A DNA stretch of 14,762 nt from positions 1 to 14,762 of IMG/VR virus record IMGVR_UViG_2684622581_000004, one strand, 5' to 3'. Position numbers and translations under genes: made by a program. Below are positions 1 through 14,285 of the stretch, in pieces. Within the stretch, counting starts at the first letter, position 1, and the number at the start of each line of letters is the position of its first letter. Under the pieces are notes generated by a model. It ran no database searches. It was given only the letters and a program-made list of their open reading frames with translations, and was not told the origin of the DNA. Source of the DNA: a virus (taxonomy: Duplodnaviria; Heunggongvirae; Uroviricota; Caudoviricetes).

Positions 1-1248
1 ATGGCACTGAATATTCCATTCAGAAATGCGTACTATCGTTTTGCATCCAGTTACTCATTTCTCTTTTTTATTTCCTGGTCGCTGTGGTGGTCGTTATACG
101 CTATTTGGCTGAAAGGACATCTAGGGTTGACAGGGACGGAATTAGGTACACTTTATTCGGTCAACCAGTTTACCAGCATTCTATTTATGATGTTCTACGG
201 CATCGTTCAGGATAAACTCGGTCTGAAGAAACCGCTCATCTGGTGTATGAGTTTCATCCTGGTCTTGACCGGACCGTTTATGATTTACGTTTATGAACCG
301 TTACTGCAAAGCAATTTTTCTGTAGGTCTAATTCTGGGGGCGCTCTTTTTTGGCCTGGGGTATCTGGCGGGATGCGGTTTGCTTGACAGCTTCACCGAAA
401 AAATGGCGCGAAATTTTCATTTCGAATATGGAACAGCGCGCGCCTGGGGATCTTTTGGCTATGCTATTGGCGCGTTCTTTGCCGGCATATTTTTTAGTAT
501 CAGTCCCCATATCAACTTCTGGTTGGTCTCGCTATTTGGCGCTGTATTTATGATGATCAACATGTGTTTTAAAGATAAGGATCACCAGTGCGTAGCGGCG
601 GATGCGGGAGGGGTAAAAAAAGAGGATTTTATCGCAGTTTTCAAGGATCGAAACTTCTGGGTTTTCGTCATATTTATTGTGGGGACGTGGTCTTTCTATA
701 ACATTTTTGATCAACAACTTTTTCCTGTCTTTTATGCAGGTTTATTCGAATCACACGATGTAGGAACGCGCCTGTATGGTTATCTCAACTCATTCCAGGT
801 GGTACTCGAAGCGCTATGCATGGCGATTATTCCTTTCTTTGTGAATCGGGTAGGGCCAAAAAATGCATTACTTATCGGTGTTGTGATTATGGCGTTGCGT
901 ATCCTTTCCTGCGCGCTGTTCGTTAACCCCTGGATTATTTCATTAGTGAAGCTGTTACATGCTATTGAGGTTCCACTTTGTGTCATATCCGTCTTCAAAT
1001 ACAGCGTGGCAAATTTTGATAAGCGCCTGTCGTCGACGATCTTTCTGATTGGTTTTCAAATTGCCAGTTCGCTTGGGATTGTGCTGCTTTCAACGCCGAC
1101 TGGGATACTCTTTGACCACGCAGGCTACCAGACAGTTTTCTTCGCAATTTCGGGTATTGTCTGCCTGATGTTGCTATTTGGTATTTTCTTCTTGAGTAAA
1201 AAACGCGAGCAAATAGTTATGGAAACGCCTGTACCTTCAGCAATATAG
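1..1248 (+). CDS. cscB: Sucrose:H+ symporter (oligosaccharide:H+ symporter, LacY family, MFS)
   Basis: 415-aa ORF, highly hydrophobic with 12-TM-like pattern; N-terminus MALNIPFRNAYYRF... matches my recollection of E. coli CscB; clear LacY-family resemblance. Stop TAG at 1246-1248. Confidence 0.85.
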   Translation: MALNIPFRNAYYRFASSYSFLFFISWSLWWSLYAIWLKGHLGLTGTELGTLYSVNQFTSILFMMFYGIVQDKLGLKKPLIWCMSFILVLTGPFMIYVYEPLLQSNFSVGLILGALFFGLGYLAGCGLLDSFTEKMARNFHFEYGTARAWGSFGYAIGAFFAGIFFSISPHINFWLVSLFGAVFMMINMCFKDKDHQCVAADAGGVKKEDFIAVFKDRNFWVFVIFIVGTWSFYNIFDQQLFPVFYAGLFESHDVGTRLYGYLNSFQVVLEALCMAIIPFFVNRVGPKNALLIGVVIMALRILSCALFVNPWIISLVKLLHAIEVPLCVISVFKYSVANFDKRLSSTIFLIGFQIASSLGIVLLSTPTGILFDHAGYQTVFFAISGIVCLMLLFGIFFLSKKREQIVMETPVPSAI

Positions 1249-1256
1249 ACGTAAAC

Positions 1257-1300
1257 TTTTCCGGTTGTTGTCGATATCTCCCTATCCCTCAACCGGAAAA
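1257..1300. repeat. 11-bp perfect inverted repeat (TTTTCCGGTTG / CAACCGGAAAA) with 22-nt loop just after cscB stop
   Basis: Read directly; no U-tract follows on either strand, so not a canonical intrinsic terminator. Confidence 0.3.
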
Positions 1301-1687
1301 TAATAATACTAAAGTGCTTAGCCCTGCTAATAATCACCTAATCCAAACGCCTCATTCATGTTCTGGTACAGTCGCTCAAATGTACTTCAGATGCGCGGTT
1401 CGCTGATTTCCAGGACATTGTCGTCATTCAGCGACCTGTCCCGTGTATCACGGTCCTGCGAATTCATCAAGGAATGCATTGCGGAGTGAAGTATCGAGTC
1501 ACGCCATATTTGCTATCAGGATTCTGTGTGATGGTTACATCGCCCGGCCCAGGGCTGTTTAGTCATCAGCGCTTTCTGACAGTGCTGAGATTTCAACCTG
1601 TTGCAGTAAAAATGAGTAGATATAAGGCAAGTGTGCTGCCAAACCTATCTTTTACGGGGTGAAGGTAGATTTCGTTTGAAGGGTATC

Positions 1688-1702
1688 TGGTGTCCCCTGC
1701 AG
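1688..1702 (-). other. Prophage attR core: copy of argW tRNA-Arg 3' end (CTGCAGGGGACACCA on minus strand)
   Basis: Minus-strand 15-mer is identical to the 3' terminal sequence of argW as I recall it; lies 73 nt beyond the torI stop; core sits inside a 7-bp inverted repeat CCCCTGC...GCAGGGG (1694-1726). Confidence 0.65.
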
Positions 1703-1759
1703 ACATCTACTTGACGCGGCAGGGGATTGATTAGAATGGTGTTTTTTAGGTGTGAGAAA

Positions 1760-1781
1760 TATTTTACCCGCTATTTTACCC
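1760..1781. repeat. Tandem direct repeat TATTTTACCC x2 (12-bp period) overlapping torI 3' end, adjacent to attR
   Basis: Read directly; position between RDF gene and att core fits arm-type/RDF binding sites (inference). Confidence 0.3.
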
Positions 1782-1976
1782 ATTGGCGCGGCTTAAGAGC
1801 TTATTTTTGAATTCACAATGGTCACGATATAACCATCTTGCTCGCCCGTGGATAACTTTGGCTTTTGGCAGGTCGCCGGACTTAATCCGGTCATAGATGA
1901 AGGTTTTACCAAAGCCAGTATCAGCCATGATGAATTTCAAATCAACTAGGGAATCAGGCTGTAGTTCGTGTTGCAT
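1776..1976 (-). CDS. torI: Excisionase-like recombination directionality factor / Tor inhibitor (AlpA-Xis family winged helix)
   Basis: 66-aa ORF MQHELQPDSLVDLKFIMADTGFGKTFIYDRIKSGDLPKAKVIHGRARWLYRDH...; matches my recollection of E. coli TorI; RBS GGAG about 9 nt upstream; last gene before attR. Confidence 0.8.
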   Translation of the reverse strand: MQHELQPDSLVDLKFIMADTGFGKTFIYDRIKSGDLPKAKVIHGRARWLYRDHCEFKNKLLSRANG

Positions 1977-1995
1977 GAGTGCTATCTCCGAATAG

Positions 1996-2011
1996 GGAAT
2001 CGAACCTGCAA
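1996..2011 (-). other. 16-nt tRNA T-arm fragment (TTGCAGGTTCGATTCC) identical to the argW segment immediately 5' of the att core
   Basis: Minus-strand 16-mer in the torI promoter region; similarity does not extend into the rest of a tRNA, so this is a fragment, not a gene. Confidence 0.4.
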
Positions 2012-2107
2012 ATCAGGTAATAAAAATACGCTCAATGACGGCGATGGTAGATCAGGATATTTTAAGAAACTGACAGGCCTCATCGAGTGTGAGGCTGTAT
2101 GGCTCTA

Positions 2108-2413
2108 TTATTTCACCTCTTGTTGTGACATTGTTGAAAAATGGATACCAGCTCGTTGCTGCCAGACGATCCAACCGAGAGTCATATCCCATGCCATGTA
2201 TTCGTTATCGCCGTTTTTTGCTCTCCGACGATCTACTAAGTCACCGAAACGCTTTTCCATGAATAATTCATAAGCTTCGCGTTCATCTAGTTCTACTTCC
2301 AGAGATAGGAGTGCGATTTCATAAGCACGGCGCTCAATATCGTCTCGCACGTCAAGGCTGCTGATACGCTCTTTAATTTCTTTAATCAGTTCTTTGTCGG
2401 TAAAAGTGGTCAT
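2108..2413 (-). CDS. yfdT: Hypothetical prophage protein (YfdT-like, 101 aa)
   Basis: ORF with GGAGG RBS; start overlaps upstream stop (TAATG); size and position match K-12 CPS-53 yfdT as I recall it. Confidence 0.55.
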   Translation of the reverse strand: MTTFTDKELIKEIKERISSLDVRDDIERRAYEIALLSLEVELDEREAYELFMEKRFGDLVDRRRAKNGDNEYMAWDMTLGWIVWQQRAGIHFSTMSQQEVK

Positions 2414-2775
2414 TATGCTCCAGCCTCCGGTGCTTTTGGCATTACTGCCCAGTGAGTGATATTGACGTTTTCAAGGTCCCCGACCTGAAATGTCCACTGC
2501 CATTCTCCGGTTTCTTTTTGCCCCCAGGTGTACCAGAGAGAACGCCAGCCAATTAGCCAGCCTTCTCCGTTAGCATCGAATAACAAAACACTTTCATTTG
2601 CTGGTGGCAGTTCAGTTGACACTGGTATTGCTTTGTTTTCCTGTGCTGCACATTTAGCTTCAAGCGCATCGAATTTGCGCACCAGGTATTCAGCATCTGT
2701 TTCATTCACTTTCAGATCTCGCGGTACACATCTCCCACGAAGAAACCCTTCCATTTCGAAAACATTCATGCGCAT
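2413..2775 (-). CDS. yfdS: DUF551-family phage protein (YfdS-like, 120 aa)
   Basis: C-terminal W-rich motif ...GWLIGWRSLWYTWGQ...NITHWAVMP typical of DUF551; GGAG RBS; overlaps upstream gene by 10 nt. Confidence 0.6.
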   Translation of the reverse strand: MRMNVFEMEGFLRGRCVPRDLKVNETDAEYLVRKFDALEAKCAAQENKAIPVSTELPPANESVLLFDANGEGWLIGWRSLWYTWGQKETGEWQWTFQVGDLENVNITHWAVMPKAPEAGA

Positions 2776-3302
2776 TTGCGTAACTCCGATAACTCGTTAA
2801 AACGTTCCATAAACATCCCGTAGGCATGGCCCGGTGCCAGTGGAATCACGTTGAACATCTCTGTTGCCGGGATGCCTTCCAGTACAGGCCAGAAAGAGCC
2901 ATCATCAAGCCCGAGATCGCGGCGTTCGGTTGCCAGCATGATGAGATCGGCATATTTCACAGGCGTGCTCATAACCGGGGGTAACCCGTATTTCTCACGG
3001 ATTACGGCGTCTATTTTTTCTTCCATCCGTTTATAGTCAGGAAGAAGGCGTTTCAGTGGCGCGGGGATGTCCTGACAATAAGCTTCTGTTGCATCATGCA
3101 TTAACGCTTCAAAAGCAAATTCCTGCGGTACCAGCTGGCTGCAAAGCACCGCATGTTGGGCGACGCTGTAGAAGTGTGAAAGATGTCCTGCAAAGCGACA
3201 GATATTTGAAAGGGAAACCGCGATATCGTTAATATCGATGTTGTCTTTATTTATCCTGTCATAATAAAAATGCTTCCCGGAAAAAGTTTTAATAAATGAC
3301 AT
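2766..3302 (-). CDS. yfdR: HD-domain phosphohydrolase (5'-deoxynucleotidase, YfdR/YfbR-like)
   Basis: HD motifs (AQHAVL...ALMHDATEAY); start chosen at internal ATG 3302-3300 with GGAGAA RBS 5 nt upstream, giving 178 aa; the longer ORF to 3365 has no RBS. Confidence 0.7.
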   Translation of the reverse strand: MSFIKTFSGKHFYYDRINKDNIDINDIAVSLSNICRFAGHLSHFYSVAQHAVLCSQLVPQEFAFEALMHDATEAYCQDIPAPLKRLLPDYKRMEEKIDAVIREKYGLPPVMSTPVKYADLIMLATERRDLGLDDGSFWPVLEGIPATEMFNVIPLAPGHAYGMFMERFNELSELRKCA

Positions 3303-3396
3303 TTTGTTCTCCACGTTATATGCGCTGCACCGCGCTGAAATTTGGTTAAAGAAAAACCTCGCCATCAGGCGATTATTGAGTCAATTACGTTTCCAT

Positions 3397-3418
3397 AAAT
3401 GCCCCCGCAGGGGCATTT
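3397..3418 (-). terminator. Perfect 9-bp stem hairpin (AAATGCCCC-cgca-GGGGCATTT) 11 nt downstream of the yfdQ-like stop
   Basis: Read directly; weak U-tract, so a terminator or RNA-processing role is uncertain. Confidence 0.25.
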
Positions 3419-3430
3419 GCAGTAATGAAA

Positions 3431-4255
3431 TCAGGCGGTGAAAGTACCAATAAAGGTTTCTACTTTGCTGTCTTTGAACTTCTCAACAAGCAGATCACGA
3501 AATTCGTTAGCCATTTCCTCCTGCACTGCTTCCAGCTGAATAATGCGTAGTACCAGTACAGGACGATCGCCAGTGATAATGCTGAGGCGTAATTTAAACG
3601 GACGTTCTTTCAGACCTTCAAACGGAACGCATTTAAATTCAAATGCCACTGGCATAATGTCTTTGGTCTTCGCTTCGACAGACTCCATCAGGGAGCGTTT
3701 GCCGCTGAAGTCATTATCTTCAAAATCAGCTGTCTGGTTCGCTTCAATTGTGATTTTACGGATCGCCGCAGCCGCTTTGGTTGCCTGAATGGCGTCACCA
3801 TTAGCATCAAAGCCCACAAGGTAGTCGGCCCAGTCTTCAATCCATTCTGCCAGTGACTTCTGGGAGTTACGCTCGCCGTTAACAGACAACAGGGCAGAGA
3901 ACGGTGCTGTCTTTTTCAGTTTGAGAGTGGCGGTGTTATCTGCGTGACCTGGTTCATCAATAGTACCCAGGTTAAGCACACTGACGGCTCGCATATTATC
4001 GGCATCGATAAAGCAGCGGGTGCCTTCATCTGCAAGATCTTTAGAATAACGGGTAAAGTCATCGATGCTGGCAGTGGAAAGCGCACCACGGAAACGGAAG
4101 CGATTTAAATTAAATTTTTCCAGATCATGAATGCGGAAATTCTCAGGCAATGCCACAGCATCGGCACCAATCTTACTGATAATTTCATTAACACCCTGAG
4201 CAGAAATAAGGGCATGGATTTGATTAATTGTGGTTGCGTCTAAGTTCTGAGACAT
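3431..4255 (-). CDS. yfdQ: DUF2303-family prophage protein (YfdQ-like, 274 aa)
   Basis: 274-aa ORF with GAGGA RBS; size and neighbourhood match K-12 yfdQ as I recall it. Confidence 0.6.
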
Positions 4256-4320
4256 AATAAGTCCTCACTATATAAAGATATTCAGTGATGAGATAAATAA
4301 TCAGTTTATTAAGAACGATA

Positions 4321-4683
4321 TTAACGACCTGCTGCGCGGAGTTTTCCGTCAGGCTCACCGGCAAGAGTCAGTAATTGTCCCTGGTCTTCCTGCAGAATAG
4401 TCAGGCGACCACCGCGATTGACATACATCGGCGTTTCGGTGGTGTCTTCTTCGGAAATTTTCCCGCGGTTAGTCGGGCGAACATATGAGAGTTTGTGTTT
4501 GATTTTCACTCGGTTCTCATCAAACGGTTCGATTTCTAGGTTGAGCGAGACCTTACCTTTGGTTCTCGTGTTCATCACACCGGAAGCGACTTCACTGAGA
4601 ACTGCGCCGATTTTGGTTTCAAATACGCCGCCGTCCAGCTCCCCGATAAATGCCTGCACATCAGTACTGCGTTCGCTAGCCAT
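4321..4683 (-). CDS. yfdP: Hypothetical prophage protein (YfdP-like, 120 aa)
   Basis: Start at ATG 4683-4681 with GAGGAG RBS 7 nt upstream; the 226-aa extension to 5001 runs through GC-rich Pro/Arg-rich sequence and is rejected. Confidence 0.55.
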   Translation of the reverse strand: MASERSTDVQAFIGELDGGVFETKIGAVLSEVASGVMNTRTKGKVSLNLEIEPFDENRVKIKHKLSYVRPTNRGKISEEDTTETPMYVNRGGRLTILQEDQGQLLTLAGEPDGKLRAAGR

Positions 4684-5151
4684 TTTGCTGCTCCTCATCA
4701 TATCGACCCTGCAAGGTCGGTTAGTTTCTCCACAAAACAGAGAAGAACACCTGCGGTGACTGCCGCCCGGATGGATTGGGTTATGAGCCCGTCGTCCGGT
4801 GATGCTCTTCTCTGTTTTGTAAAAAGGACGGTACCAGCCGGAAGCAAGGGTACAAGCTGGTACCGCCAAGACTACACACAGCATAAAGTTGTGGTGCCGG
4901 GTGCCTCCCGGTGCCTGGCGAAGGTTGCACACCAGGCGGGTGGGTATCCACAGAAGGTCGACTGTCAGCCTCAACCTTAACCCGCGTGCGCTGAGCCGCA
5001 TTCACCACAACGCTAAGGATTCTCTCTGGTTGAAAATACTTAGCTGTTATGTGCCTGCTTTTAGCCACATCAGGCGAGGTGGACCTAGTTATTCCCCAAC
5101 AACAAGGATTCGGTTAATCTGGTTATCCCCAACAACGCAAAAGGAAAAGAA
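4684..5151. other. GC-rich, hairpin-dense noncoding island (candidate structured ncRNA or cis-regulatory leader)
   Basis: No credible ORF in six frames; 15-bp perfect inverted repeat 4732-4746/4806-4820; 10-bp stem 4829-4838/4856-4865; further stems 4897-4911 and 4913-4938; direct repeats GTTATYCCCCAACAAC at 5088-5103 and 5121-5136; GC far higher than the flanking AT-rich genes. Confidence 0.45.
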
Positions 5152-5586
5152 ATGTCCGGTAATATCTATACGCTGTACAAATCCCACTGTGAAAATGTTG
5201 GAAAGTATCGGGGCATTGAAATCAGTGGGGTAGTGTCATCAGTCGAAATAAGCAAAGTTGAATCAAGGGCAACATTACTTACTCTTCTGGACCTTGTCTT
5301 ACATGAGCACCGGAAGAAATTCGGCACTCCCTATAATCAGTTGAATGGGAAAAAGGCTCTGGTTCACCTTATTCTGATGAAGCATCACTGGATGCCAAAA
5401 CAGATTAATGAGATGAAATTTGATGAACTTCTTCTTTCAATTCAGGATGAACTCACACTTGATAAAATAAGCGTAACCGCCCAGAAATTTTTAGATTATC
5501 GAGACTGGAGATCACAAATTCATCACTTTGATGATTTTGACGAAAATGAATGGGATCCTAATTTGTCTGCACAATATCTAAAGTAA
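5152..5586 (+). CDS. Orphan hypothetical protein (144 aa), AT-rich, opposite strand to the early-left operon
   Basis: ATG with AAGGA RBS 6 nt upstream; protein-like composition; no family recognised; markedly lower GC than neighbours. Confidence 0.55.
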   Translation: MSGNIYTLYKSHCENVGKYRGIEISGVVSSVEISKVESRATLLTLLDLVLHEHRKKFGTPYNQLNGKKALVHLILMKHHWMPKQINEMKFDELLLSIQDELTLDKISVTAQKFLDYRDWRSQIHHFDDFDENEWDPNLSAQYLK

Positions 5587-5764
5587 CATCCTGTGATAAA
5601 ACCGTGATTTCCTGATCCAGTTTTTTTAAGGAGTCTATTGTTTCCTGTCGATAAGACAGCACTTCACGAAGCTGGTTTATAGCTGCCAGCTTCTTTGTCA
5701 TCCACTCATAAATTTCCTCATCTGTGTAGCCAGGCGCGACGATTTTGGGTTCTGTTTTGTGCAT
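5558..5764 (-). CDS. Small acidic hypothetical protein (68 aa), first ORF downstream of PL
   Basis: ATG 5764-5762 with GAGGAG RBS at 7-nt spacing; overlaps the 3' end of the convergent 144-aa ORF by 29 nt; not Arg-rich, so not N-like. Confidence 0.5.
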   Translation of the reverse strand: MHKTEPKIVAPGYTDEEIYEWMTKKLAAINQLREVLSYRQETIDSLKKLDQEITVLSQDVTLDIVQTN

Positions 5765-5809
5765 TTCACATCTCCTCAAGTTATCAGTTACTTGTTGATG
5801 GGGACCAGA

Positions 5810-5821
5810 TTGTTAAAGAGC
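5810..5821 (-). promoter_or_regulatory. rrn-type boxA (GCTCTTTAACAA) in the PL leader; nut-like antitermination element
   Basis: Minus-strand 12-mer matches the rrn boxA core as I recall it (TGCTCTTTAACAATTTATCA); flanked by hairpins at 5824-5841 and 5776-5793. Confidence 0.5.
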
Positions 5822-5823
5822 TA

Positions 5824-5846
5824 AGCGTCCTGTAGGGCGCTTTTTT
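5824..5846 (+). terminator. Stem-loop (AGCGTCC-tgta-GGGCGCT) followed by T6: intrinsic terminator on the plus strand, or boxB-like hairpin on the leftward transcript
   Basis: 7-bp stem with one G-U pair, 4-nt loop, U-run only on the plus strand; would end the transcript of the 144-aa gene. Confidence 0.5.
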
Positions 5847-5930
5847 GTTGCTAACGAATCATCCTGGACTTCATATGCCCCAGGCGGCTACTTCGTGGGC
5901 GTCCTGCCTGTTTGTTGTTTCTCTTGGGTA

Positions 5931-5959
5931 CATTATGTATCTCAAAGGTACATTGTCAA
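5931..5959 (-). promoter_or_regulatory. Leftward early promoter PL (-35 TTGACA, 16-17 bp spacer, -10 CATAAT) overlapped by GGTACA operator half-sites
   Basis: Minus-strand hexamers read directly; GGTACA at 5927-5932 and 5947-5952 resemble the OR half-sites. Confidence 0.55.
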
Positions 5960-5998
5960 GTATAAAAAAACCTGCCGAAGCAGGTTCATAAACATTGA

Positions 5999-6673
5999 TT
6001 AGGCTTTGATTTTGTATCTTCTTGGTTTTCCTGAGAAAATCACAGTACCAATTATAGAGCAATTACCGTTGATCTTGATGTAAGGCTCAGGCCAGTTTGG
6101 GTTTAACGCTTTGAGATAACGCTGTGTCCCATCTTCTATCAACCTTTTGAAGGTGGTTTCACCTGTATCGTGCATCAATGCAATAACGTCGTCACCGTGG
6201 CAGGCAGGTACTTCAGGATCGACAAAAATCATGTCTCCCGGGCGGTACTCATCAATCATTGAATCACCTATCACCCGCAAGATATAAGTCATTTCCCCAC
6301 AGGGTACAGGGCAGGGATACGTTTCTGCTGTGCTCAAATCAACCTCAGAATATCCAACTTCTTTCCATGCTCCGGCCTGTACCCATGATATGACAGGGAC
6401 TAATGTGATTTGTTTATTAGTGATTGAAACATCAGGTTTTTTTGTGATGTTCGTTGTCTGGTGTTCTTGATCGAGCCATCCGACAGGCAGGTCGAAACAT
6501 TTTTCGATGTGTCGTGCCATGCTGTCACCGATATTTTTAGTAGCACCATCTCCCATAAACCTGCTGGTCTGGGTTGGCTCGCGATCAATCATAGTGGCAA
6601 AGGAAGAATTCCCGCCAACACCATCTCTCAGTTTTCTGGCGTTAGACCGCCGGATGTCATGGATTGTTTTCAT
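5999..6673 (-). CDS. cI: CI-like prophage repressor (N-terminal HTH, C-terminal S24 LexA-type autopeptidase)
   Basis: 224 aa; S24 catalytic Ser in VIGDSM and Lys in TFKRL; Ala-Gly candidate cleavage site (VQAGAW); divergent from a cro-like gene. Confidence 0.85.
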   Translation of the reverse strand: MKTIHDIRRSNARKLRDGVGGNSSFATMIDREPTQTSRFMGDGATKNIGDSMARHIEKCFDLPVGWLDQEHQTTNITKKPDVSITNKQITLVPVISWVQAGAWKEVGYSEVDLSTAETYPCPVPCGEMTYILRVIGDSMIDEYRPGDMIFVDPEVPACHGDDVIALMHDTGETTFKRLIEDGTQRYLKALNPNWPEPYIKINGNCSIIGTVIFSGKPRRYKIKA

Positions 6674-6688
6674 AACGAAATTAAAACC

Positions 6689-6757
6689 CTTGTACCGTTA
6701 AGGTACAAGTATCTTGAAGGTTCATTTCAATCATGTAATATGTACACCGGAGGTACA
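6689..6757. promoter_or_regulatory. OR operator region: palindrome CTTGTACC-N5-GGTACAAG (6689-6709) and palindrome TGTACA-N5-GGTACA (6741-6757)
   Basis: Perfect inverted repeats read directly, flanking and overlapping the PR hexamers. Confidence 0.6.
6714..6741 (+). promoter_or_regulatory. Rightward early promoter PR (-35 TTGAAG, 16-bp spacer, -10 TAATAT)
   Basis: Hexamers read directly, 23 nt upstream of the cro ATG; second operator overlaps -10/+1. Confidence 0.55.
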
Positions 6758-6763
6758 TATCGT

Positions 6764-6964
6764 ATGAAAGCGTATTGGGACTCTTTAACCAAAGAACAGC
6801 AGGGCGAGTTGGCCGGAAAAGTTGGCTCAACACCTGGCTACTTACGGCTGGTTTTCAATGGCTATAAAAAAGCCAGTTTTGTGCTGGCTAAAAAACTTGA
6901 GCAATGCACGTCAGGTGCAATTACGAAATCTGACTTAAGACCGGATATCTATCCGAAAGATTAG
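6764..6964 (+). CDS. cro: Cro-like small HTH regulator (66 aa)
   Basis: Divergent from cI across the operator region; GGAGG upstream; the 167-aa ORF-track version is an antisense extension into cI and is rejected. Confidence 0.6.
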   Translation: MKAYWDSLTKEQQGELAGKVGSTPGYLRLVFNGYKKASFVLAKKLEQCTSGAITKSDLRPDIYPKD

Positions 6965-6995
6965 CAGAACACTTTCAATTTTTAACCACAGAACG

Positions 6996-7559
6996 ATGAG
7001 GCTAATCGTGGGTAAGCATCACTGGAAAATAGAAAAACAGCCTGAGTGGTACGTGAAAGCTGTCAGAAAAATTATCGCGGCGTTGCCGGGTGGTTACGCT
7101 GAAGCGGCTGACTGGCTCGATGTAACAGAAAACGCTTTATTCAACCGCCTTCGTGCAGATGGCGATCAGATTTTCCCGCTGGGATGGGCAATGGTTTTAC
7201 AGCGTGCTGGTGGCACTCACTTCATTGCTGATGCTGTGGCGCAGTCTGCAAATGGCGTCTTTGTGTCTCTTCCTGACGTCGAGGATGTGGACAACGCCGA
7301 TATTAACCAGCGTCTGCTGGAAGTCATTGAACAGATCGGCAGTTATTCAAAACAGATTCGTTCAGCAATCGAAGACGGTGTAGTGGAACCGCATGAGAAG
7401 ACAGCAATTAACGACGAGTTGTACCTCTCAATTTCGAAGCTGCAGGAGCATGCAGCACTGGTCTACAAAATTTTTTGCATTTCAGAAAGTAATGACGCCC
7501 GCGAGTGTGCAGCTCCGGGCGCCGTGGCGTGTCGTGACTGTGGAGAAACTAACGCATGA
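6996..7559 (+). CDS. CII-like phage regulatory protein (putative; YdaT/CP76-like)
   Basis: Position immediately after cro; 187-aa ORF; alternative GTG start at 7008 has a better RBS (GAGG); family assignment is from weak recollection. Confidence 0.4.
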
Positions 7560-7894
7560 ACAGTTTAACAACACACTACCGTCGCTCGCAACTGATTGCG
7601 CTTCCTGTACCGGGTGGAAAAGCGAAGGTGGAGTATTGCTATGCAGTGAATGTACCAGGTGACAGGGAAATTGTAACCCACAGCTTTGCAGAGTGGGCTG
7701 TGGGTGATTTCAACCGGCAGAAGGAGACAGTCCTTTGCGACAAGTTAACCGCTGGTTCAAAGATCACTACGGAGTGCCCGTCAGAGTCATTCGTTGGGAG
7801 CCGGAAACACAACGGGTTATCTACCTCCGTGAAGGCTATGAGCATGAGTGCTTCAGCCCGCTCGAACAGTTTCGTCGTAAATTCAGGGAAATAG
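7556..7894 (+). CDS. Hypothetical protein, apparently frame-disrupted (frame changes at about 7705-7740)
   Basis: ATG overlaps upstream stop (ATGA) with GGAGAA RBS; N-terminal 60 aa look protein-like, the C-terminal part is Ser-rich junk, while the -1 frame from TTG 7734 (AAGGAG RBS) to 7914 gives a good globular sequence. Confidence 0.3.
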
Positions 7895-7903
7895 AGGTCG
7901 GTC

Positions 7904-8845
7904 ATGAGCACTAAATTAACCGGCTATGTATGGGATGGTTGCGCTGCGTCAGGCATGAAATTATCCAGCGTGGCAATTATGGCCCGCCTGGCTGATTTCA
8001 GTAATGACGAAGGTGTGTGCTGGCCATCAATTGAAACCATTGCCCGTCAGATTGGCGCGGGGATGAGTACCGTCAGAACGGCTATCGCACGGCTGGAAGC
8101 AGAAGGCTGGTTAACGCGTAAGGCGCGTCGCCAGGGTAACCGCAATGCGTCGAATGTTTATCAGCTTAACGTTGCGAAGCTTCAGGCAGCGGCATTTTCT
8201 CAACTGTCAGATTCTGACCCGTCAAAATCTGATGCATCAAAATCTGACCCGTCAAAATTTGATGCGTCGAAATCTGGCAAAAAAGCGGGTTTTCACCCGT
8301 CAGAATCTGGCGGGGATCCGTCAGTAAAATCAAAACATGATCCGTCAGATAAAAAAACTTCTCGTCCGGACGCTTCGCAACCGGACACGCAGACGGCTGA
8401 ACAGGAGTTTTTAACTCGCCATCCTGATGCGGTTGTATTCAGCCCTAAAAAGCGCCAGTGGGGAACGCAGGATGATTTGACCTGCGCACAGTGGCTCTGG
8501 AAAAAAATCATCGCCCTGTACGAGCAGGCCGCCGAATGTGACGGCGAGGTGGTTCGTCCCAAAGAACCGAACTGGACAGCCTGGGCAAACGAAATTCGCC
8601 TGATGTGTGTGCAGGATGGTCGTACTCACAAACAAATCTGCGAGATGTACAGCCGCGTCAGCCGCGATCCGTTCTGGTGCCGTAACGTGCTCAGCCCGTC
8701 GAAGCTGCGGGAAAAATGGGATGAGCTTTCCCTGCGCTTATCGCCGTCCGTCAGCACGCACACAGAAAAACGTGAAGACCCGTACTTCAAAGCCAGTTAC
8801 GACAATGTGGACTACAGCCAGATCCCGGCAGGATTCAGGGGGTGA
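7904..8845 (+). CDS. Replication initiator (lambda O-like, N-terminal winged HTH) with internal iteron origin
   Basis: 313 aa; AGAGG RBS; N-terminal HTH-like region; central low-complexity DPSKSDASKS repeats encoded by DNA iterons. Confidence 0.65.
   Translation: MSTKLTGYVWDGCAASGMKLSSVAIMARLADFSNDEGVCWPSIETIARQIGAGMSTVRTAIARLEAEGWLTRKARRQGNRNASNVYQLNVAKLQAAAFSQLSDSDPSKSDASKSDPSKFDASKSGKKAGFHPSESGGDPSVKSKHDPSDKKTSRPDASQPDTQTAEQEFLTRHPDAVVFSPKKRQWGTQDDLTCAQWLWKKIIALYEQAAECDGEVVRPKEPNWTAWANEIRLMCVQDGRTHKQICEMYSRVSRDPFWCRNVLSPSKLREKWDELSLRLSPSVSTHTEKREDPYFKASYDNVDYSQIPAGFRG
8213..8357 (+). repeat. Iteron array (candidate ori): two 30-bp tandem repeats plus further CCGTCAG copies, followed by an A-rich tract
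   Basis: TCTGACCCGTCAAAATCTGATGCATCAAAA at 8213-8242 and near-identical copy at 8243-8272; CCGTCA core at 8219, 8249, 8296, 8318, 8342. Confidence 0.6.
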
Positions 8846-9336
8846 TTATGAGTCTTTTGAATGAAGTTCAGAAATTCATTGAAGCCCATCCTGGGTGTAC
8901 TTCCGGAGACATTGCTGATGCTTTTGCAGGTTACTCACGGCAGCGCGTTCTGCAGTCAGCAAGCAAGTTACGTCAGAGTGGGCGTGTGGCTCACCGTTGT
9001 GAAGGGGATACACGCAGACATTTCCCGCGCCAGACAAAGATATCGCCGGAGGCGGAACGGCAACCAGTTCGTGAAACCAGACCTGTGCGCAATTTCTATG
9101 TCGGCACTAACGATCACCGGGTGATTTTGTGCCTGACCCGCCAGGCTGAAGAACTGGAGTCAAGGGGCTTATACCGTCGTGCTGCAACCGTGTGGATGGC
9201 GGCATTCCGTGAAAGCCACTCCCAGCCAGAACGAAACAATTTTCTGGCGCGTCGTGAGCGGTGCTTACGGAAAAGCAGCAAGCGCGCTGCATCGGGTGAA
9301 GAGTGGTATCTGTCAGGGAATTACGTGGGGGCTTAA
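8842..9336 (+). CDS. yfdN: PerC-family-like transcriptional regulator (YfdN-like, 164 aa from GTG; alternative ATG at 8848)
   Basis: Motif RQAEELESRGLYRRAATVWMAA resembles the PerC/Pch signature; overlaps the upstream stop; size matches K-12 yfdN as I recall it. Confidence 0.5.
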   Translation: MIMSLLNEVQKFIEAHPGCTSGDIADAFAGYSRQRVLQSASKLRQSGRVAHRCEGDTRRHFPRQTKISPEAERQPVRETRPVRNFYVGTNDHRVILCLTRQAEELESRGLYRRAATVWMAAFRESHSQPERNNFLARRERCLRKSSKRAASGEEWYLSGNYVGA

Positions 9337-9989
9337 TGAGTAATAAATATTGTCAGGCGCTGGTGGAACTGCGGAACAAACCAGCCCATGAACTGAAGGA
9401 AGTGGGCGATCAGTGGCGCACGCCGGATAACATTTTCTGGGGAATTAACACCCTGTTTGGTCCGTTTGTTCTGGATCTGTTCACTGACGGTGATAACGCC
9501 AAATGTGCCGCGTATTACACGGCGGAAGACAACGCGCTGGCGCATGACTGGTCAGAACGTCTTGCGGAGCTTAAAGGTGCTGCCTTTGGTAATCCCCCAT
9601 ACAGCCGCGCCAGTCAGCATGAGGGGCAATACATCACCGGCATGCGTTACATCATGAAGCATGCCAGTGCCATGCGTGATAAAGGCGGGCGCTATGTTTT
9701 CCTGATCAAAGCTGCCACCAGCGAAGTGTGGTGGCCGGAAGATGCAGATCATATTGCTTTTATTCGCGGGCGTATTGGTTTTGAACTGCCTGCCTGGTTT
9801 ATCCCGAAGGATGAGAAGCAGGTGCCGACAGGCGCTTTCTTCGCTGGTGCTATTGCTGTTTTCGACAAGACCTGGAAGGGACCGGCAATCAGCTACATCG
9901 GGCGCGATGAACTTGAGGCATGTGGTGAGGCGTTTCTGGCGCAGGTTCGCCAGCAGGCGGAAAAACTGGTCAGGGAGATGGCGGCATGA
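9336..9989 (+). CDS. Phage N6-adenine DNA methyltransferase (Dam-like, orphan)
   Basis: Catalytic NPPY motif (FGNPPYSR); start at ATG 9336 overlapping the upstream stop (TAATG); no adjacent restriction endonuclease. Confidence 0.8.
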   Translation: MSNKYCQALVELRNKPAHELKEVGDQWRTPDNIFWGINTLFGPFVLDLFTDGDNAKCAAYYTAEDNALAHDWSERLAELKGAAFGNPPYSRASQHEGQYITGMRYIMKHASAMRDKGGRYVFLIKAATSEVWWPEDADHIAFIRGRIGFELPAWFIPKDEKQVPTGAFFAGAIAVFDKTWKGPAISYIGRDELEACGEAFLAQVRQQAEKLVREMAA

Positions 9990-10312
9990 CGACGTTAACT
10001 CAATGCCAGCAGCAGGTGCTGGATATGCTGATTTCTTACCAGAAAGAACGTGGCTTTCCGCCAACCAATCAGGAGGTGGCAACCATGCTGGGATACCGTT
10101 CAGTGAATGCAGCAGTGGAGCATCTTCGCGCACTGGAGAAAAAAGGCGTCATCACGATAAAGCGTGGCGTGGCCCGGGGGATAACGCTTCATACCGCGGT
10201 GAAGGCCGACGACAGCGAGGCGGTCGAGATTATCCGCGCACTGCTTGCCGGTGAGGAAAACGGCAGGCTGCGTGCAGCCCACTGGTTACATGAGAGGGGC
10301 CTGAAAGTATGA
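9986..10312 (+). CDS. LexA N-terminal DNA-binding-domain-like protein (no S24 peptidase domain)
   Basis: 108 aa; strong resemblance to the LexA winged-helix DBD (QQQVLDMLISYQKERGFPPT...LRALEKKGVI); ATGA overlap with the MTase stop. Confidence 0.6.
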   Translation: MTTLTQCQQQVLDMLISYQKERGFPPTNQEVATMLGYRSVNAAVEHLRALEKKGVITIKRGVARGITLHTAVKADDSEAVEIIRALLAGEENGRLRAAHWLHERGLKV

Positions 10313-10698
10313 AGCTGAACCTGCCTTTTCCGCCCAGCGTGAACACGTACTGGCGACACCCCAACAAAGGGGCGTTTGCTGGTAAGAGCCTGATAAGCGC
10401 GGCGGGGCGAAAATTCCAGAGCGCGGCGTGCGCAGCAATAGTTGAGCAGTTACGTCGTCTGCCGAAACCAACGTCGGCACCTGCTTCAGTGGAGATCGTG
10501 TTGTTTCCTCCGGATAACCGGATCCGCGATCTGGACAACTATAACAAGGCGCTGTTTGACGCCCTGACCCACGCGGGTGTGTGGGAAGACGACAGTCAGG
10601 TGAAAAGAATGCTGGTGGAGTGGGGACCGGTTATCCCGGAAGGGAAGGTCGAGATCACTATCAGTAAGTACGAGAAAACGGCGGGTGCAGCCGCCTGA
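10309..10698 (+). CDS. rusA: Holliday junction resolvase RusA
   Basis: 129 aa with RusA-like N-terminus (LPFPPSVNTYWRH) and DLDNYNKALFDALT motif; ATGA overlap with upstream gene. Confidence 0.8.
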   Translation: MKLNLPFPPSVNTYWRHPNKGAFAGKSLISAAGRKFQSAACAAIVEQLRRLPKPTSAPASVEIVLFPPDNRIRDLDNYNKALFDALTHAGVWEDDSQVKRMLVEWGPVIPEGKVEITISKYEKTAGAAA

Positions 10699-10717
10699 TC
10701 AAGAGGAGAAACGAAGT

Positions 10718-11515
10718 ATGAATAATCTGATGGTCATTGATGGTATTGAAGTTCGTCGTGATGCTTTTGGGCGTTACAGCCTGAACGATCTGCACAGGGC
10801 TGCCGGTTCTCTGGATAAGCATAAGCCTGCATTCTGGCTCCGCAATGAGCAAACTGAACGTTTAATAAGCGAGTTGCAGATTTGCAACTCGGTCAATATA
10901 GAGCCAGTTAACGTTATTCGTGGCGGAAATAACCAGGGGACGTATGTCTGCAAAGAACTGGTGTATGCCTATGCAATGTGGATCAGCCCGTCATTCCATC
11001 TGAAGGTGATCCGTACTTTCGACATGGTAACCAGTGCACCGGAAAAATTATCCGGACAGGCTGCTGACAAGATGCAGGCTGGTGTGATTCTGCTGGACTT
11101 TATGCGCCGGGAATTAAACCTGTCTAACTCTTCAGTGCTTGGTGCCTGTCAGAAACTCCAGGAGGCTGTTGGCTTACCGAATCTGGCACCGCGCTATGCC
11201 ATTGATGCTCCTGCTGACGCGCCTGATGGCTCAAGCCGCCCCACGCTGTCACTGAGTGCACTGCTGAAGCAGTATGGTATCCGCCTGACAGCTAATCAGG
11301 CATATCACCAGATGGTGAAGCTGGGGATCGTCGAGCAGCGAGAACGGTACAGCCGTACCACGATTAACAACATCAAAAAATTCTGGTCGCTGACAGCGAA
11401 AGGCTGCATGTTCGGCAAGAATATCACCAGTCCCGCAAATCCGCGCGAGACGCAGCCGCATTTCTTCGAATCCCGATTCCCTGAGCTGTTAAAGCTGCTC
11501 GATACCGTTCATTGA
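10718..11515 (+). CDS. KilA-N domain protein (antirepressor-like)
   Basis: N-terminal KilA-N signature (IDGIEVRRDAFGRYSLNDLHRAAG...FWLRN); start at ATG 10718 with AGGAG RBS rather than the RBS-less 10685. Confidence 0.7.
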   Translation: MNNLMVIDGIEVRRDAFGRYSLNDLHRAAGSLDKHKPAFWLRNEQTERLISELQICNSVNIEPVNVIRGGNNQGTYVCKELVYAYAMWISPSFHLKVIRTFDMVTSAPEKLSGQAADKMQAGVILLDFMRRELNLSNSSVLGACQKLQEAVGLPNLAPRYAIDAPADAPDGSSRPTLSLSALLKQYGIRLTANQAYHQMVKLGIVEQRERYSRTTINNIKKFWSLTAKGCMFGKNITSPANPRETQPHFFESRFPELLKLLDTVH

Positions 11516-11516
11516 G

Positions 11517-12512
11517 GTGACCGTGAGAGCACTACTGACCCCTGAAATTGCCCCGCGTATGGGGATCGTATTGTTCAGGCCAGGTTCAGAGTTGATGCCC
11601 CTGTTTATGCAGAGGCGTGTCCTGCTGGAGCCTGAGCCGGAACGTTATTCATCTTTCGCCAGTGGTGCCGTTCCGGCGGCATCACAACCGCTGGCGGATG
11701 ATCCTGCCGTTCGGGCCGTGTTCCGCAATGAGGCAGTGATCCGTCGTGCTGGTGGCGTGGAATGTCTTGAAAGCTGGTTACTTCGTGAAAAAGGCTGCCA
11801 GTGGCCTCATTCCGACTGGCACAGCGAGAACATGACAACAATGCGACACGCTCCGGGCGCAATCCGTTTGTGCTGGCACTGCGATAACCAGCTGCGCGAT
11901 CAGTTCACGGAACGGCTGGAATCAATGGCAACGGATAACTGTGCCCGCTGGGTGTTGTCTGTTGTGCGTCGGGATCTCGGTTTTGATGATAGTCACGTTG
12001 TGACAATGCCGGAACTGTGCTGGTGGCTGATTCGTAATGACCTGGCGGATGCCTTACCGGAAAGTGCAGCCCGTAAGGCACTGAGATTACCGAAGCCTGT
12101 TGTGCAGGCGGTCACCCGGGAAAGTGACCTTGTGCCTTCGGTTCCTGCCACCAGCATTATCCAGGATAAAGCGAAAAAGGTGCTGGCGCTGAAAGTGGAT
12201 CCGGAGTCGCCGGAGTCTTTTATGTTACGCCCAAAACGTCGCCGCTGGGTTAATGAAAAGTACACGCGCTGGGTTAAGACACAGCCGTGTGCATGTTGTG
12301 GAAAGCTTGCTGATGATCCCCACCACCTGATAGGTCACGGTCAGGGTGGAATGGGAACAAAAGCGCATGACCTCTTTGTGTTGCCTTTGTGCAGAAAGCA
12401 TCACGACGAGCTGCATGCGGATACCGTGGCATTTGAAGAGAAGTATGGCTCCCAGCTGGAGCTGATATTTCGTTTTATCGATCGTGCGCTGGCAATAGGC
12501 GTACTGGCGTAA
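11517..12512 (+). CDS. DUF968-family protein with C-terminal Cys/His (HNH-like) motif
   Basis: C-terminal CACCG...HHLIGHGQGGMGTKAHD...LPLCRKHHDELH; GTG start with overlapping GAGG; start codon uncertain. Confidence 0.55.
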   Translation: MTVRALLTPEIAPRMGIVLFRPGSELMPLFMQRRVLLEPEPERYSSFASGAVPAASQPLADDPAVRAVFRNEAVIRRAGGVECLESWLLREKGCQWPHSDWHSENMTTMRHAPGAIRLCWHCDNQLRDQFTERLESMATDNCARWVLSVVRRDLGFDDSHVVTMPELCWWLIRNDLADALPESAARKALRLPKPVVQAVTRESDLVPSVPATSIIQDKAKKVLALKVDPESPESFMLRPKRRRWVNEKYTRWVKTQPCACCGKLADDPHHLIGHGQGGMGTKAHDLFVLPLCRKHHDELHADTVAFEEKYGSQLELIFRFIDRALAIGVLA

Positions 12513-12525
12513 GTGGAGAACGAGC

Positions 12526-13278
12526 ATGAACCTTGAAGCCTTACCGAAATATTACTCCCCAAAATCTCCAAAATTGAGTGATGACGCACCGGCGACAGGC
12601 TCTGGTGGTTTAACAATTACGGATGTGATTGCTGCGCAGGGGATGGTGCAGTCGAAAGCACCGCTTGGGTTTGCCTTATTCCTGGCAAAAGTTGGTGTTC
12701 AGGATCCTCAGTTTGCGATTGAAGGTCTGCTCAATTACGCGATGGCACTGGATAACCCGACATTGAATAAATTGAGTGAAGAAACCCGGCTACAGATTAT
12801 TCCTTACCTTGTGAATTTTGCCTTTGCTGATTATTCCAGGTCTGCGGCAAGTAAGGCTCGCTGTGAGCATTGTGCTGGTAATGGATTTCATAATGTATTG
12901 CGCGAAGTGGTGAAACACTCCAGAAGCGGGGAATCTGTTATCAAGGAAGAGTGGGTGAAGGAACTATGTCAGCATTGTCATGGTAAGGGAGAAGTCAGCA
13001 CAGCGTGCAGAGGGTGTAAGGGTAAAGGTATTGTCCTGGATGAAAAAAGGACCCGGCTTCATGGCACGCCTGTTTATAAGATTTGTGGGCGTTGCAATGG
13101 AAACCGGTTTAGCCGTTTACCAACCACACTGGCGCGGCATCATGTCCAGAAGCTGGTACCAGATCTGACGGATTATCAGTGGTACAAAGGATATGCAGAT
13201 GTCATTGATAAACTGGTGACAAAGTGCTGGCAGGAAGAAGCATATGCTGAGGCGCAATTAAGAAAAGTGACGAGATAA
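12526..13278 (+). CDS. Late-gene antitermination protein Q
   Basis: 250 aa with multiple CxxC zinc-binding pairs (CEHCAGNG, CQHCHGKG, CRGCKGKG, CGRCNGN); sits directly upstream of a late promoter/terminator and the lysis genes; GGAGAA RBS. Confidence 0.7.
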   Translation: MNLEALPKYYSPKSPKLSDDAPATGSGGLTITDVIAAQGMVQSKAPLGFALFLAKVGVQDPQFAIEGLLNYAMALDNPTLNKLSEETRLQIIPYLVNFAFADYSRSAASKARCEHCAGNGFHNVLREVVKHSRSGESVIKEEWVKELCQHCHGKGEVSTACRGCKGKGIVLDEKRTRLHGTPVYKICGRCNGNRFSRLPTTLARHHVQKLVPDLTDYQWYKGYADVIDKLVTKCWQEEAYAEAQLRKVTR

Positions 13279-13309
13279 ATGATTTTCGCCGAAGATAGTG
13301 ACATGATTC

Positions 13310-13338
13310 TTGCATTTTTCAAAAGATCTGGTTAGGAT
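13310..13338 (+). promoter_or_regulatory. Candidate late promoter PR' (-35 TTGCAT, 17-bp spacer, -10 TAGGAT)
   Basis: Hexamers read directly, 32 nt after the Q stop and upstream of a terminator. Confidence 0.4.
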
Positions 13339-13384
13339 TCTCCTAACGATGGGCTTTGTGTGTCTACCATTGATAATCTTCAAG

Positions 13385-13408
13385 AAACCGCCACCGAGCG
13401 GTTTTTTA
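13385..13408 (+). terminator. Candidate tR' intrinsic terminator (AAACCGC-caccga-GCGGTTT + T-run)
   Basis: 7-bp stem followed by TTTTTTATT; placed where Q-dependent antitermination would act. Confidence 0.45.
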
Positions 13409-13566
13409 TTGATGTCAATTGTGTTTTTAAGGCTCTCCTTCCTTAAAGTGTGTTGTACAAAAAACTGGCAGCCAGCTACGCTCATTTTGAAAAAGTGACA
13501 CCCTTCAATGTTTCTTTTGAATGGAATTGCTACCCATAAATCTCTATCAAAAACAGGAGAGCATAT

Positions 13567-13809
13567 ATGGTGGAGCGTTGTTCTGTTTGTGAGCAGTCAT
13601 TAAGTTATTCACGAGAAGTTGAACAAGATGGCGTTGAATATAAATCTTGCCCAAAATGTTCTGCTGATGCCGGAGTGCACGTTTTTTATAAAACAATAGA
13701 CTTTGGTTATAGGGATATGGGAGACGGAAGGCATATCGTTCAGTCATGGTGTCCGGCTTGTCGTTCTGGTGAAAAACCTTCTATACCACCAGCATTTAAA
13801 TGTTGTTAA
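13567..13809 (+). CDS. Small zinc-ribbon protein (80 aa, CxxC pairs); moron between tR' and the lysis cassette
   Basis: AGGAGA RBS 7 nt upstream of ATG; CSVC...CPKC...CPAC motifs; own terminator downstream. Confidence 0.55.
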   Translation: MVERCSVCEQSLSYSREVEQDGVEYKSCPKCSADAGVHVFYKTIDFGYRDMGDGRHIVQSWCPACRSGEKPSIPPAFKCC

Positions 13810-13828
13810 CTCAATGAATTATAAAAAG

Positions 13829-13853
13829 AGGCTGCCTGTGGGCGGCCTTTTTT
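13829..13853 (+). terminator. Intrinsic terminator (AGGCTGCC-tgtg-GGCGGCCT + T6)
   Basis: 8-bp stem with one G-U pair, followed by TTTTTTG; directly after the zinc-ribbon ORF. Confidence 0.6.
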
Positions 13854-13940
13854 GTGCACTACGCAACTTTTGCGACTCAGCGCTATAACCAGCTTCTTTC
13901 CCTTCACTCGTTGCACTTCCGATAACCGGAGGTGGGAATT

Positions 13941-14282: not shown

Positions 14283-14285
14283 TTT

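Follow-up and report, generated by a model that had tools for sequence, protein, structure and literature searches.

An rrn-type boxA in the PL leader of an SfIV/e14-like prophage as a candidate N-independent site of Nus-factor action

The early-left transcripts of phages lambda and P22 carry nut sites, in which a boxA after the PL promoter is accompanied by a boxB hairpin, a protein of the N family and a matching nutR. The leaders of ribosomal RNA (rrn) operons, ordered boxB-boxA-boxC, require no phage factor and involve NusA, NusB, NusE, NusG, SuhB and S4. Antitermination of the rrn type works against Rho and poorly against intrinsic terminators. The functional boxA consensus, GYTCTTTAANA, has been defined by mutation (PMC5725501), and boxA alone protects the untranslated RNA of clustered regularly interspaced short palindromic repeat (CRISPR) arrays from Rho (PMC7665894). 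Here we describe a 13-nucleotide (nt) boxA in the PL leader of a Caudoviricetes element (IMG/VR record IMGVR_UViG_2684622581_000004, positions 1 to 14,762; this whole stretch of 14,762 nt is called the window), where a reading of the sequence alone (the original prediction) had noted an rrn-like boxA between two hairpins. With a probability of roughly 0.6, we read the 13-mer as an "orphan" boxA of the PL transcript that functions without N and, by analogy with rrn and CRISPR leaders, would bind Nus factors and counteract Rho.

The boxA of the PL leader and its conserved surroundings

Positions 5400–7100 of the window are 98.5% identical to Shigella phage SfIV, and the immunity region is common to the window, SfV, PhiR29/R49 and the K-12 cryptic prophage e14; judged by sequence, the element that carries boxA is an SfIV/e14-like prophage. 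A promoter scan places PL (TTGACA-16-CATAAT, 5932–5959, minus strand) at near-consensus quality, with an 11/12 match, and transcription would start at about 5925. The boxA, GCUCUUUAACAAU (DNA GCTCTTTAACAAT; 5809–5821, minus strand), lies some 105 nt beyond the promoter (about +105), in the sense orientation of PL. It is identical over all 13 nt to the E. coli K-12 rrnH leader boxA (...CAACTGCTCTTTAACAATTTATCAG) and nearer to rrn than are lambda nutL (CGCTCTTAAAAATTAA) and nutR (CGCTCTTACACATTCC), which bears out the original prediction that a 12-mer here matches the rrn core more closely than lambda's own sequence; the features named there are present as described, with coordinates shifted by about 1 nt. 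This boxA is the only exact consensus match in the window. Shuffled windows are expected to hold 0.07 matches, and 15 of 200 shuffles held at least one; taken alone, the match is only suggestive, and its significance rests on the enrichment among homologous leaders. A weaker boxA-like sequence, CTCTTTAACCAA (GACTCTTTAACCAA), does exist in codons 6–10 of cro (6781–6792, plus strand), where it had been pointed out as a possible second boxA. It has two mismatches, including the first G, and the window holds 5 consensus matches with at most one mismatch against 2.1 expected; we judge the cro motif to be at chance level and assign it no boxA role.

An invariant 22-mer of the leader RNA described below served to collect homologous PL leaders, both from viral contigs and from a set with one genome for each species. 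The exact 22-mer occurs in more than 120 viral contigs and 92 species-level genome stretches. A sense-strand consensus boxA is found between +50 and +350 in 17 of 88 distinct species-level leaders, while the antisense strand and the upstream side of the same leaders carry none. With a background of 0.002 per 300 nt elsewhere in these loci, boxA is enriched about 100-fold in the leaders, in a strand-specific and position-specific manner. It also recurs in unrelated contexts, namely in a module with an adjoining hairpin, in hairpin-less leaders of Kluyvera and E. coli 0H24, and in true nutL sites of Xenorhabdus.

The hairpin module is found in Escherichia, Enterobacter, Kosakonia, Buttiauxella, Raoultella, Atlantibacter and Scandinavium. 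On the PL strand of the window it begins with AAGCGCC-CUACA-GGACGCUU (5842–5823; 8 pairs, including one C·A mismatch), separated by a single nucleotide (A, 5822) from boxA, and it continues beyond boxA through UCUGG to 5804. A regular expression for the hairpin, set up without reference to boxA, matched 22 distinct variants, in 20 of which boxA begins exactly 1 nt after the stem; the two exceptions are a false match within coding sequence (L172) and a leader with a degenerate boxA (L138). Across the 20 variants, from at least seven genera, the ten specified consensus positions show no substitution, and the sole change within boxA is C or A at the N position, while loop, stem and linker nucleotides vary. 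The motif itself is thus evolutionarily conserved. One further leader (L139) has a degenerate hairpin and no convergent gene, but its boxA is intact and precedes an untranslated leader of roughly 300 nt. The 17 nt kept beyond the stem are not needed for termination, and the comparative data argue that boxA is functional.

The hairpin itself is best interpreted as serving a convergent plus-strand cargo gene as its intrinsic terminator (AAGCGUCCUGUAGGGCGCUU followed by UUUUUUGU; 5823–5850, plus strand), because of its plus-strand stability, its U tract and its position past convergent stop codons. The terminator scan called it on the plus strand only, where its minimum free energy (MFE) is -11.5 kcal/mol, as against -7.5 on the minus strand; a G·U wobble on the plus strand replaces the C·A mismatch of the minus strand, and the G+C-rich 8-bp stem directly precedes a U6 tract (UUUUUUGU). 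A comparison of 165 distinct homologous leaders found a convergent open reading frame (ORF) of at least 140 aa within 700 nt in 24 of 25 leaders with hairpin and boxA, versus 24 of 135 without boxA (Fisher p = 3e-14). In most variants these ORFs stop 10–30 nt from the hairpin, as in PhiR29, where a plus-strand gene ends about 28 nt before the conserved module.

In the window, the convergent ORF encodes 144 aa (5152–5586, plus strand; phrog_5286, function unknown; annotated as SfIV_36), and its stop codon lies 237 nt from the 5823–5850 terminator. A second plus-strand terminator-like hairpin (5668–5693; a 9-bp stem followed by UUUGU) lies within the first PL ORF, 82 nt past the stop of the 144-aa gene, and may be the primary terminator of that gene. 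On the other side of boxA, the second hairpin of the PL leader (CAAGU-N8-ACUUG, 5777–5794, minus strand) has five A/U-rich pairs and folds at -5 kcal/mol. It is absent from all other module variants, whose homology with the window ends at about 5804–5789 and which have unrelated sequence there, as in the PhiR29 type, and it is probably incidental.

An N-independent role for boxA and its alternatives

We propose that PL fires upon loss of repressor and that RNA polymerase then makes the conserved structured leader RNA of ~65 nt, the weak hairpin and boxA. Host NusB/NusE (S10) would bind the boxA RNA as it emerges, much as happens at rrn operons and the CRISPR leaders of Salmonella, and with the joining of NusA, NusG and SuhB the elongation complex would become Rho-resistant. 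PL transcription could in this way cross about 550 nt of untranslated antisense RNA (5557–5002) and reach the early-left genes. The hairpin 5′ of boxA, as a terminator of the other strand, would keep the cargo transcript out of PL and cI, and hairpin and boxA together would make up one junction module of 45–50 nt, spread by recombination among prophages of several enterobacterial genera.

The stretch presumed to be Rho-sensitive and protected by boxA is an ORF-free part of the PL transcript of about 556 nt in the ORF list (5002–5557, minus strand), antisense to the cargo gene; in PhiR29-type variants, more than 800 nt of untranslated RNA follow boxA. A conserved motif of full consensus is therefore found on the sense strand ahead of long untranslated RNA, as expected of an N-independent boxA. 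As no N-like protein is encoded (see below), reliance on host Nus factors, one of the options raised by the original prediction, is the best reading. The PL operons of lambda and P22 have an inverted sieB just beyond N, which nut-modified polymerase reads through; transcribing through backwards cargo is therefore a general problem. Element-sense sequence of at least 450 nt that is ORF-free, G+C-rich and partly conserved, with no match in Rfam, follows boxA in a Kluyvera locus (L185, about 3090–3650) and a Xenorhabdus locus (L155). Here boxA may protect a long noncoding RNA; the ORF-free stretch of the Kluyvera locus was found in L155 only and, in part, in L209.

Several observations weigh against a functional orphan boxA. 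The module is absent from SfV, e14 and SfII, which share the immunity region and PL, and from three leaders with the same 68-aa/144-aa convergent pair as the window, and is therefore dispensable and accessory. The 24 boxA-less leaders with convergent ORFs show that such cargo also occurs without it, and the leader with a degenerate boxA (L138) has kept both its hairpin and its convergent gene. The module variants are related by descent or recombination, so their count overstates the independent evidence for purifying selection. The untranslated stretch of the window is not conspicuously C-rich or G-poor, as judged by C>G skew as an indicator of rut sites. By a crude measure, the longest untranslated stretch has a median of 278 nt in leaders with hairpin and boxA against 218 nt in those without boxA, a modest difference (p = 0.002 in a test that pooled all 30 boxA leaders). 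A strong PL-sense intrinsic terminator lies within 2 kb in 45 of 147 leaders, which is not decisive. Finally, the conserved RNA upstream might itself antiterminate, in which case boxA would be redundant.

The same dispensability and the decayed boxA of L138 would suit a vestigial nut remnant, that is, a P22-like nutL that lost boxB and N upon recombination with cargo and persists, now inactive, through linkage to the terminator in a young module. A nut origin as such is probable: boxA plus spacer (GCTCTTTAACAATCTGG) is identical at 16 of 19 positions to that of P22 nutR, the homology stops exactly where boxB would begin, and the module probably arose from a nut site in which other sequence took the place of boxB and N. 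In Xenorhabdus relatives that share the leader RNA, either GCGCUGAAAAAGCGC or a hairpin whose loop reads GGCAUUCU comes after boxA, the matching nutR lies ~1.1 kb away across the repressor, and an ORF downstream encodes the N-type arginine-rich motif AARRYERRAAFLAKK; in Enterobacteriaceae, unlike Xenorhabdus, boxA is an orphan. Complete nutL/nutR pairs, with boxB loops of GAAAA or GGCAUUCU and nutL downstream of the leader RNA, were seen in four Xenorhabdus loci (L202, L206, L195 and L203), whose N-like ORFs have RRxERRA motifs. Present inactivity is nevertheless unlikely. The ten specified positions are free of substitutions beside variable loop, stem and linker sequences, the one variable position of boxA is the one that the functional consensus leaves free, and L139 has kept boxA after losing both hairpin and cargo.

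The position of boxA relative to the first PL ORF fits a second alternative. This ORF (68 aa, 5558–5764, minus strand; phrog_1744, function unknown) has its ATG at 5764 and a GAGGAG ribosome-binding site at 5777–5772, and starts 46 nt beyond boxA; a boxA less than 50 nt from a start codon is the criterion for targets of the suhB type (PMC5725501). Nus factors bound at boxA could tether the RNA to polymerase, occlude this ribosome-binding site, reduce translation of the 68-aa ORF and promote Rho termination, which would make boxA an attenuator of PL. We consider such negative control very unlikely, as most module variants (the PhiR29 type, L144, L152, L167, L177 and others) have no sense-strand ORF after boxA, and the 68-aa gene family also occurs without boxA.

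Selection could also have acted on the other strand. The cargo mRNA would end in ...CCAGAUUGUUAAAGAGC-N-terminator, so that its 3′ untranslated region would present an anti-boxA 13–17-mer beside an Hfq-type terminator; such a lysogen RNA could act in antisense on the boxA of superinfecting lambdoid phages or on host rrn and suhB leaders. The convergent ORF that ends 10–30 nt from the motif in 24 of 25 variants, and so places it in a 3′ untranslated region, agrees with this, as does a terminator that is clearly a plus-strand structure. We give the proposal only a slim chance, however, since abundant rrn transcripts would titrate such an RNA and since sense boxA occurs without hairpin or convergent gene in L139, L185, L155 and the Xenorhabdus nutL sites. 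The PL-sense boxA is therefore the recurrent selected feature.

By the features of a lambda-type nut site, only the boxA after PL is present in the window. No second consensus boxA occurs anywhere in it that could belong to a nutR in the PR operon; the 31-nt gap between cro and the next, cII-like gene also lacks one. No boxB with a conserved loop was found 3′ of boxA, where the sole hairpin is the A/U-rich one, with a non-conserved 8-nt loop. PHROGs and Pfam searches over more than 20 ORFs of the window revealed no N-like protein, and tblastn with lambda N, P22 gp24, two Xenorhabdus N-like proteins and HK022 Nun gave only E > 1. The 68-aa product of the first PL ORF lacks an Arg-rich motif and shows no similarity to N proteins by tblastn, which upholds the earlier view that it is not N-like, and SfIV, SfV and SfII have been reported to lack N, cII and cIII (PMC3851460). 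We conclude that the boxA of the window is not a lambda-type nut site.

An N-type site whose partner is unlike any known N, with one of the hairpins as boxB, is thus a very slim prospect. Its attractions are the lambdoid context, the many early ORFs of unknown function, a hairpin that adjoins boxA much as rrn boxB lies 5′ of boxA, and a 164-aa protein with an Arg-rich LARRERCLRK segment (8842–9336). Against it stand the missing nutR, the lack of tblastn or PHROGs matches to N, gp24 and Nun, and the occurrence of the module in phages with unrelated neighbouring genes. The loop of the 5′ hairpin, moreover, differs in almost every variant (CUACA, CCGUA, AUC, CAAUGA, CGAUU and others), which argues against a boxB-like protein site, its stem is better on the other strand, and the 3′ hairpin is missing from the other module variants; the original designation of the flanking hairpins as a nut-like site is therefore not supported. 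Chance occurrence of an 11–13-mer, which the shuffled windows by themselves would allow, is effectively refuted by the strand- and position-specific enrichment of leaders in boxA and by its conservation across genera.

The cI gene (6673–5999, minus strand) lies upstream of PL and is separated from it by the cI terminator (5987–5968), an order that is also annotated in SfV, Ayreon and e14; cro occupies 6764–6964 on the plus strand. The 144-aa cargo ORF and the 68-aa ORF overlap at their 3′ ends, and this convergent pair is kept at 33–43% identity in Kluyvera, Superficieibacter and others, possibly as a two-gene cargo module; PADLOC, which covers defence systems, and Pfam gave no match for the cargo genes. 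A Q-type late antiterminator (12526–13278, plus strand; Pfam PF03589 Antiterm, E = 2e-52) is the sole recognisable antitermination protein in the window. The 164-aa protein mentioned above (8842–9336, plus strand; phrog_1324) belongs to a "transcriptional activator" family, and its Arg-rich segment near the C-terminus (RNNFLARRERCLRKSSKR) loosely resembles N-type arginine-rich motifs. At the left end, a LacY-like host permease (1–1248, Pfam) adjoins an excisionase-like ORF (1976–1776) with no integrase between them; compared with SfIV, this end of the prophage looks truncated or rearranged. SfV (L001, 4564–4752), Ayreon (L003, 4514–4702) and ST64B (L009, 4631–4819) have isrK and C4 antisense RNA genes in a PR-side "immunity region"; the window gave no match for isrK or C4 antisense RNA.

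A conserved structured RNA at the start of PL transcripts

Immediately upstream of the hairpin and boxA lies a conserved leader RNA of about 65 nt (5845–5921, minus strand), recognised by covariation and by its match to a covariance model (CM; 90.7 bits, E = 6e-27 in the window). This RNA, which the original prediction missed, is the most novel item that we found. It consists of helix P1 (5916–5911 paired with 5858–5853), helix P2 (5884–5880 paired with 5867–5863) and an invariant 22-nt core, GGCAGGACGCCCACGAAGUAGC (5908–5887), all on the minus strand. When 42 diverse copies are aligned, paired cells make up 93.9% and compensatory changes are seen at 10 of the 11 pairs, far above slid controls; mutual information over 176 distinct sequences recovers exactly the pairs of P1 and P2. 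In the window and in leaders of the SfV and e14 types, P1 has an A·C mismatch (5913/5856; CAAAC instead of CGAAC), at a pair that is G-C in SfIV and a compensated A-U in the relative L037. The 168-nt leader is not more stable than its shuffles (z = 0.23), and the MFE fold of the leader RNA in the window does not match the fold supported by covariation; only comparative analysis is informative for this structure. Counts of G·U versus C·A were ambiguous as to strand; the constant location of the RNA directly behind PL promoters provided the assignment.

The leader RNA occurs across Enterobacterales prophages, one copy per phage, and always begins 5–10 nt after a PL-type -10 element; no second copy was found on the PR side. 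From Xenorhabdus and Pectobacterium to E. coli, its 22-nt core does not vary, nor do several nucleotides of the junctions and loops, and mosaic breakpoints delimit a part of the leader (5919–5852) that is common to very different phages. Of 5426 complete E. coli genomes, 1813 carry the leader RNA, about 1000 of them together with hairpin and boxA, and the K-12 copy lies in e14 between ymfK (cohE) and ymfJ (L135, 3010–3075). Searches of Rfam with the window and its relatives, at gathering and permissive thresholds, gave no match; HK022 put is also absent from Rfam, so that this negative says nothing on likeness to put. A full-text literature search for the sequence likewise found no match. Ayreon (L003, about 2500–1950, minus strand) and the Stx2c, cdtI and 2H10 phages share cI and PL with the window and, from window position 5902 onward, have another long, ORF-poor and apparently structured leader.

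That the RNA is invariant in different hosts points to a host component as its binding partner. Candidate roles are a put-like action on RNA polymerase and binding of CsrA to its two CAGGA(C/U)G-like motifs. These resemble CsrB repeats and are spaced ~40 nt apart on the minus strand, as CAGGACG (5908–5898, possibly in a GGC-AGGAC-GCC hairpin) and CAGGAUGA (5868–5859). The put RNAs of HK022 and HK639 have CAGGAUG, AAGGAUG or CAGGAAG in a hairpin loop; put of the HK022 type acts in cis, and the terminator read-through that it brings about requires the zinc-binding domain of the RNA polymerase beta′ subunit. Homology of the leader RNA to put was considered and rejected, since BLAST returned only an 8-mer and the covariance model R1 misses HK022 putL, HK022 putR and HK639 putL. 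Since Xenorhabdus has the RNA alongside N-type nut sites, the RNA does not merely stand in for N. The PL transcripts of lambda (L233, 680–640) and P22 (L234, 2885–2850), both on the minus strand, begin with AUCAGCAGGACGC, which resembles the start of the window core (CAGGCAGGACGC), and in P22 GUAGCC follows shortly after; this suggests a general 5′-leader motif of lambdoid PL transcripts. More tentatively, and as a possibility that we would not call probable, the leader RNA (5921–5845) and the orphan boxA could together form a protein-free early antitermination device that uses host factors only, with the RNA as a new class of leader RNA that binds polymerase or host factors, put-like in function though unrelated in sequence, and boxA as an add-on that brings in Nus factors where inverted, untranslated cargo has to be crossed.

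Significance and relation to known systems

Escherichia, Shigella and Salmonella very commonly harbour N-less lambdoid prophages (SfV, SfIV, SfII, e14, ST64B and relatives). If the orphan boxA acts as proposed, N-independent Nus antitermination, so far known from rRNA, suhB and CRISPR arrays, would extend to the early transcription of phages. The tolerance of these phages for backwards-inserted cargo, such as defence or conversion genes, inside an operon would then be explained by a two-faced junction module that stops the cargo transcript in one direction and makes the operon transcript Rho-resistant in the other. The leader RNA is in itself a well-supported structured RNA with a core invariant from Xenorhabdus to E. 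coli K-12, absent from Rfam and accessible in the tractable e14.

The put RNAs of HK022 and HK639 are the closest parallel to the leader RNA. Both are ~65–70 nt long, lie at the very 5′ end of the PL transcript of lambdoid phages (N-less ones in the case of the Enterobacteriaceae leader RNA) and share a GGAUGA motif; both have covarying helices and unpaired nucleotides invariant across hosts, as expected of a ligand of host machinery. However, the helices of the leader RNA are nested, with P1 enclosing P2, whereas those of put are in tandem, and there is no similarity in sequence or by covariance model. Unlike put, the leader RNA has no copy in the PR operon and is found together with N-type nut sites in Xenorhabdus.

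Like the nut sites of lambda and P22, the boxA of the window lies on the early-left transcript shortly after PL, with an inverted gene downstream in the operon (sieB there, the cargo gene here), and Xenorhabdus relatives with the same leader RNA carry complete nut sites and N-like genes. It differs in the absence of boxB, N and nutR and in having the full rrn consensus instead of lambda's CGCUCUUA. With rrn leaders it shares the identical 13-mer, independence of a phage factor, a location ahead of untranslated RNA and a hairpin immediately 5′ of boxA (rrnH: GCGAC...GUCGC-AAC-UGCUCUUUAACAA). The hairpin of the window is, however, a terminator of the opposite strand, a boxC-like sequence is lacking (UUUAUCAGACAAUCUGUGUGGG in rrn, UCUGGUCCCCAUCAAC in the window), and the setting is a phage early operon of protein-coding genes.

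The BoxA in the 5′ untranslated region of suhB (Baniulyte et al. 2017, PMC5725501) is likewise a consensus boxA less than 50 nt from a start codon that recruits Nus factors independently of N and outside rRNA, but it represses translation and promotes Rho termination. As most module variants have no adjacent sense ORF, antitermination is the more plausible outcome here. The model that we adopt is that of the boxA upstream of CRISPR arrays in Salmonella and other bacteria (Stringer et al. 2020, PMC7665894), a stand-alone leader boxA with Nus-based protection from Rho; the genetic context differs, and the function established there by experiment is inferred for the window. The orphan boxA is best explained as this known mechanism in a new setting, a Nus-loading site fused to a reverse terminator.

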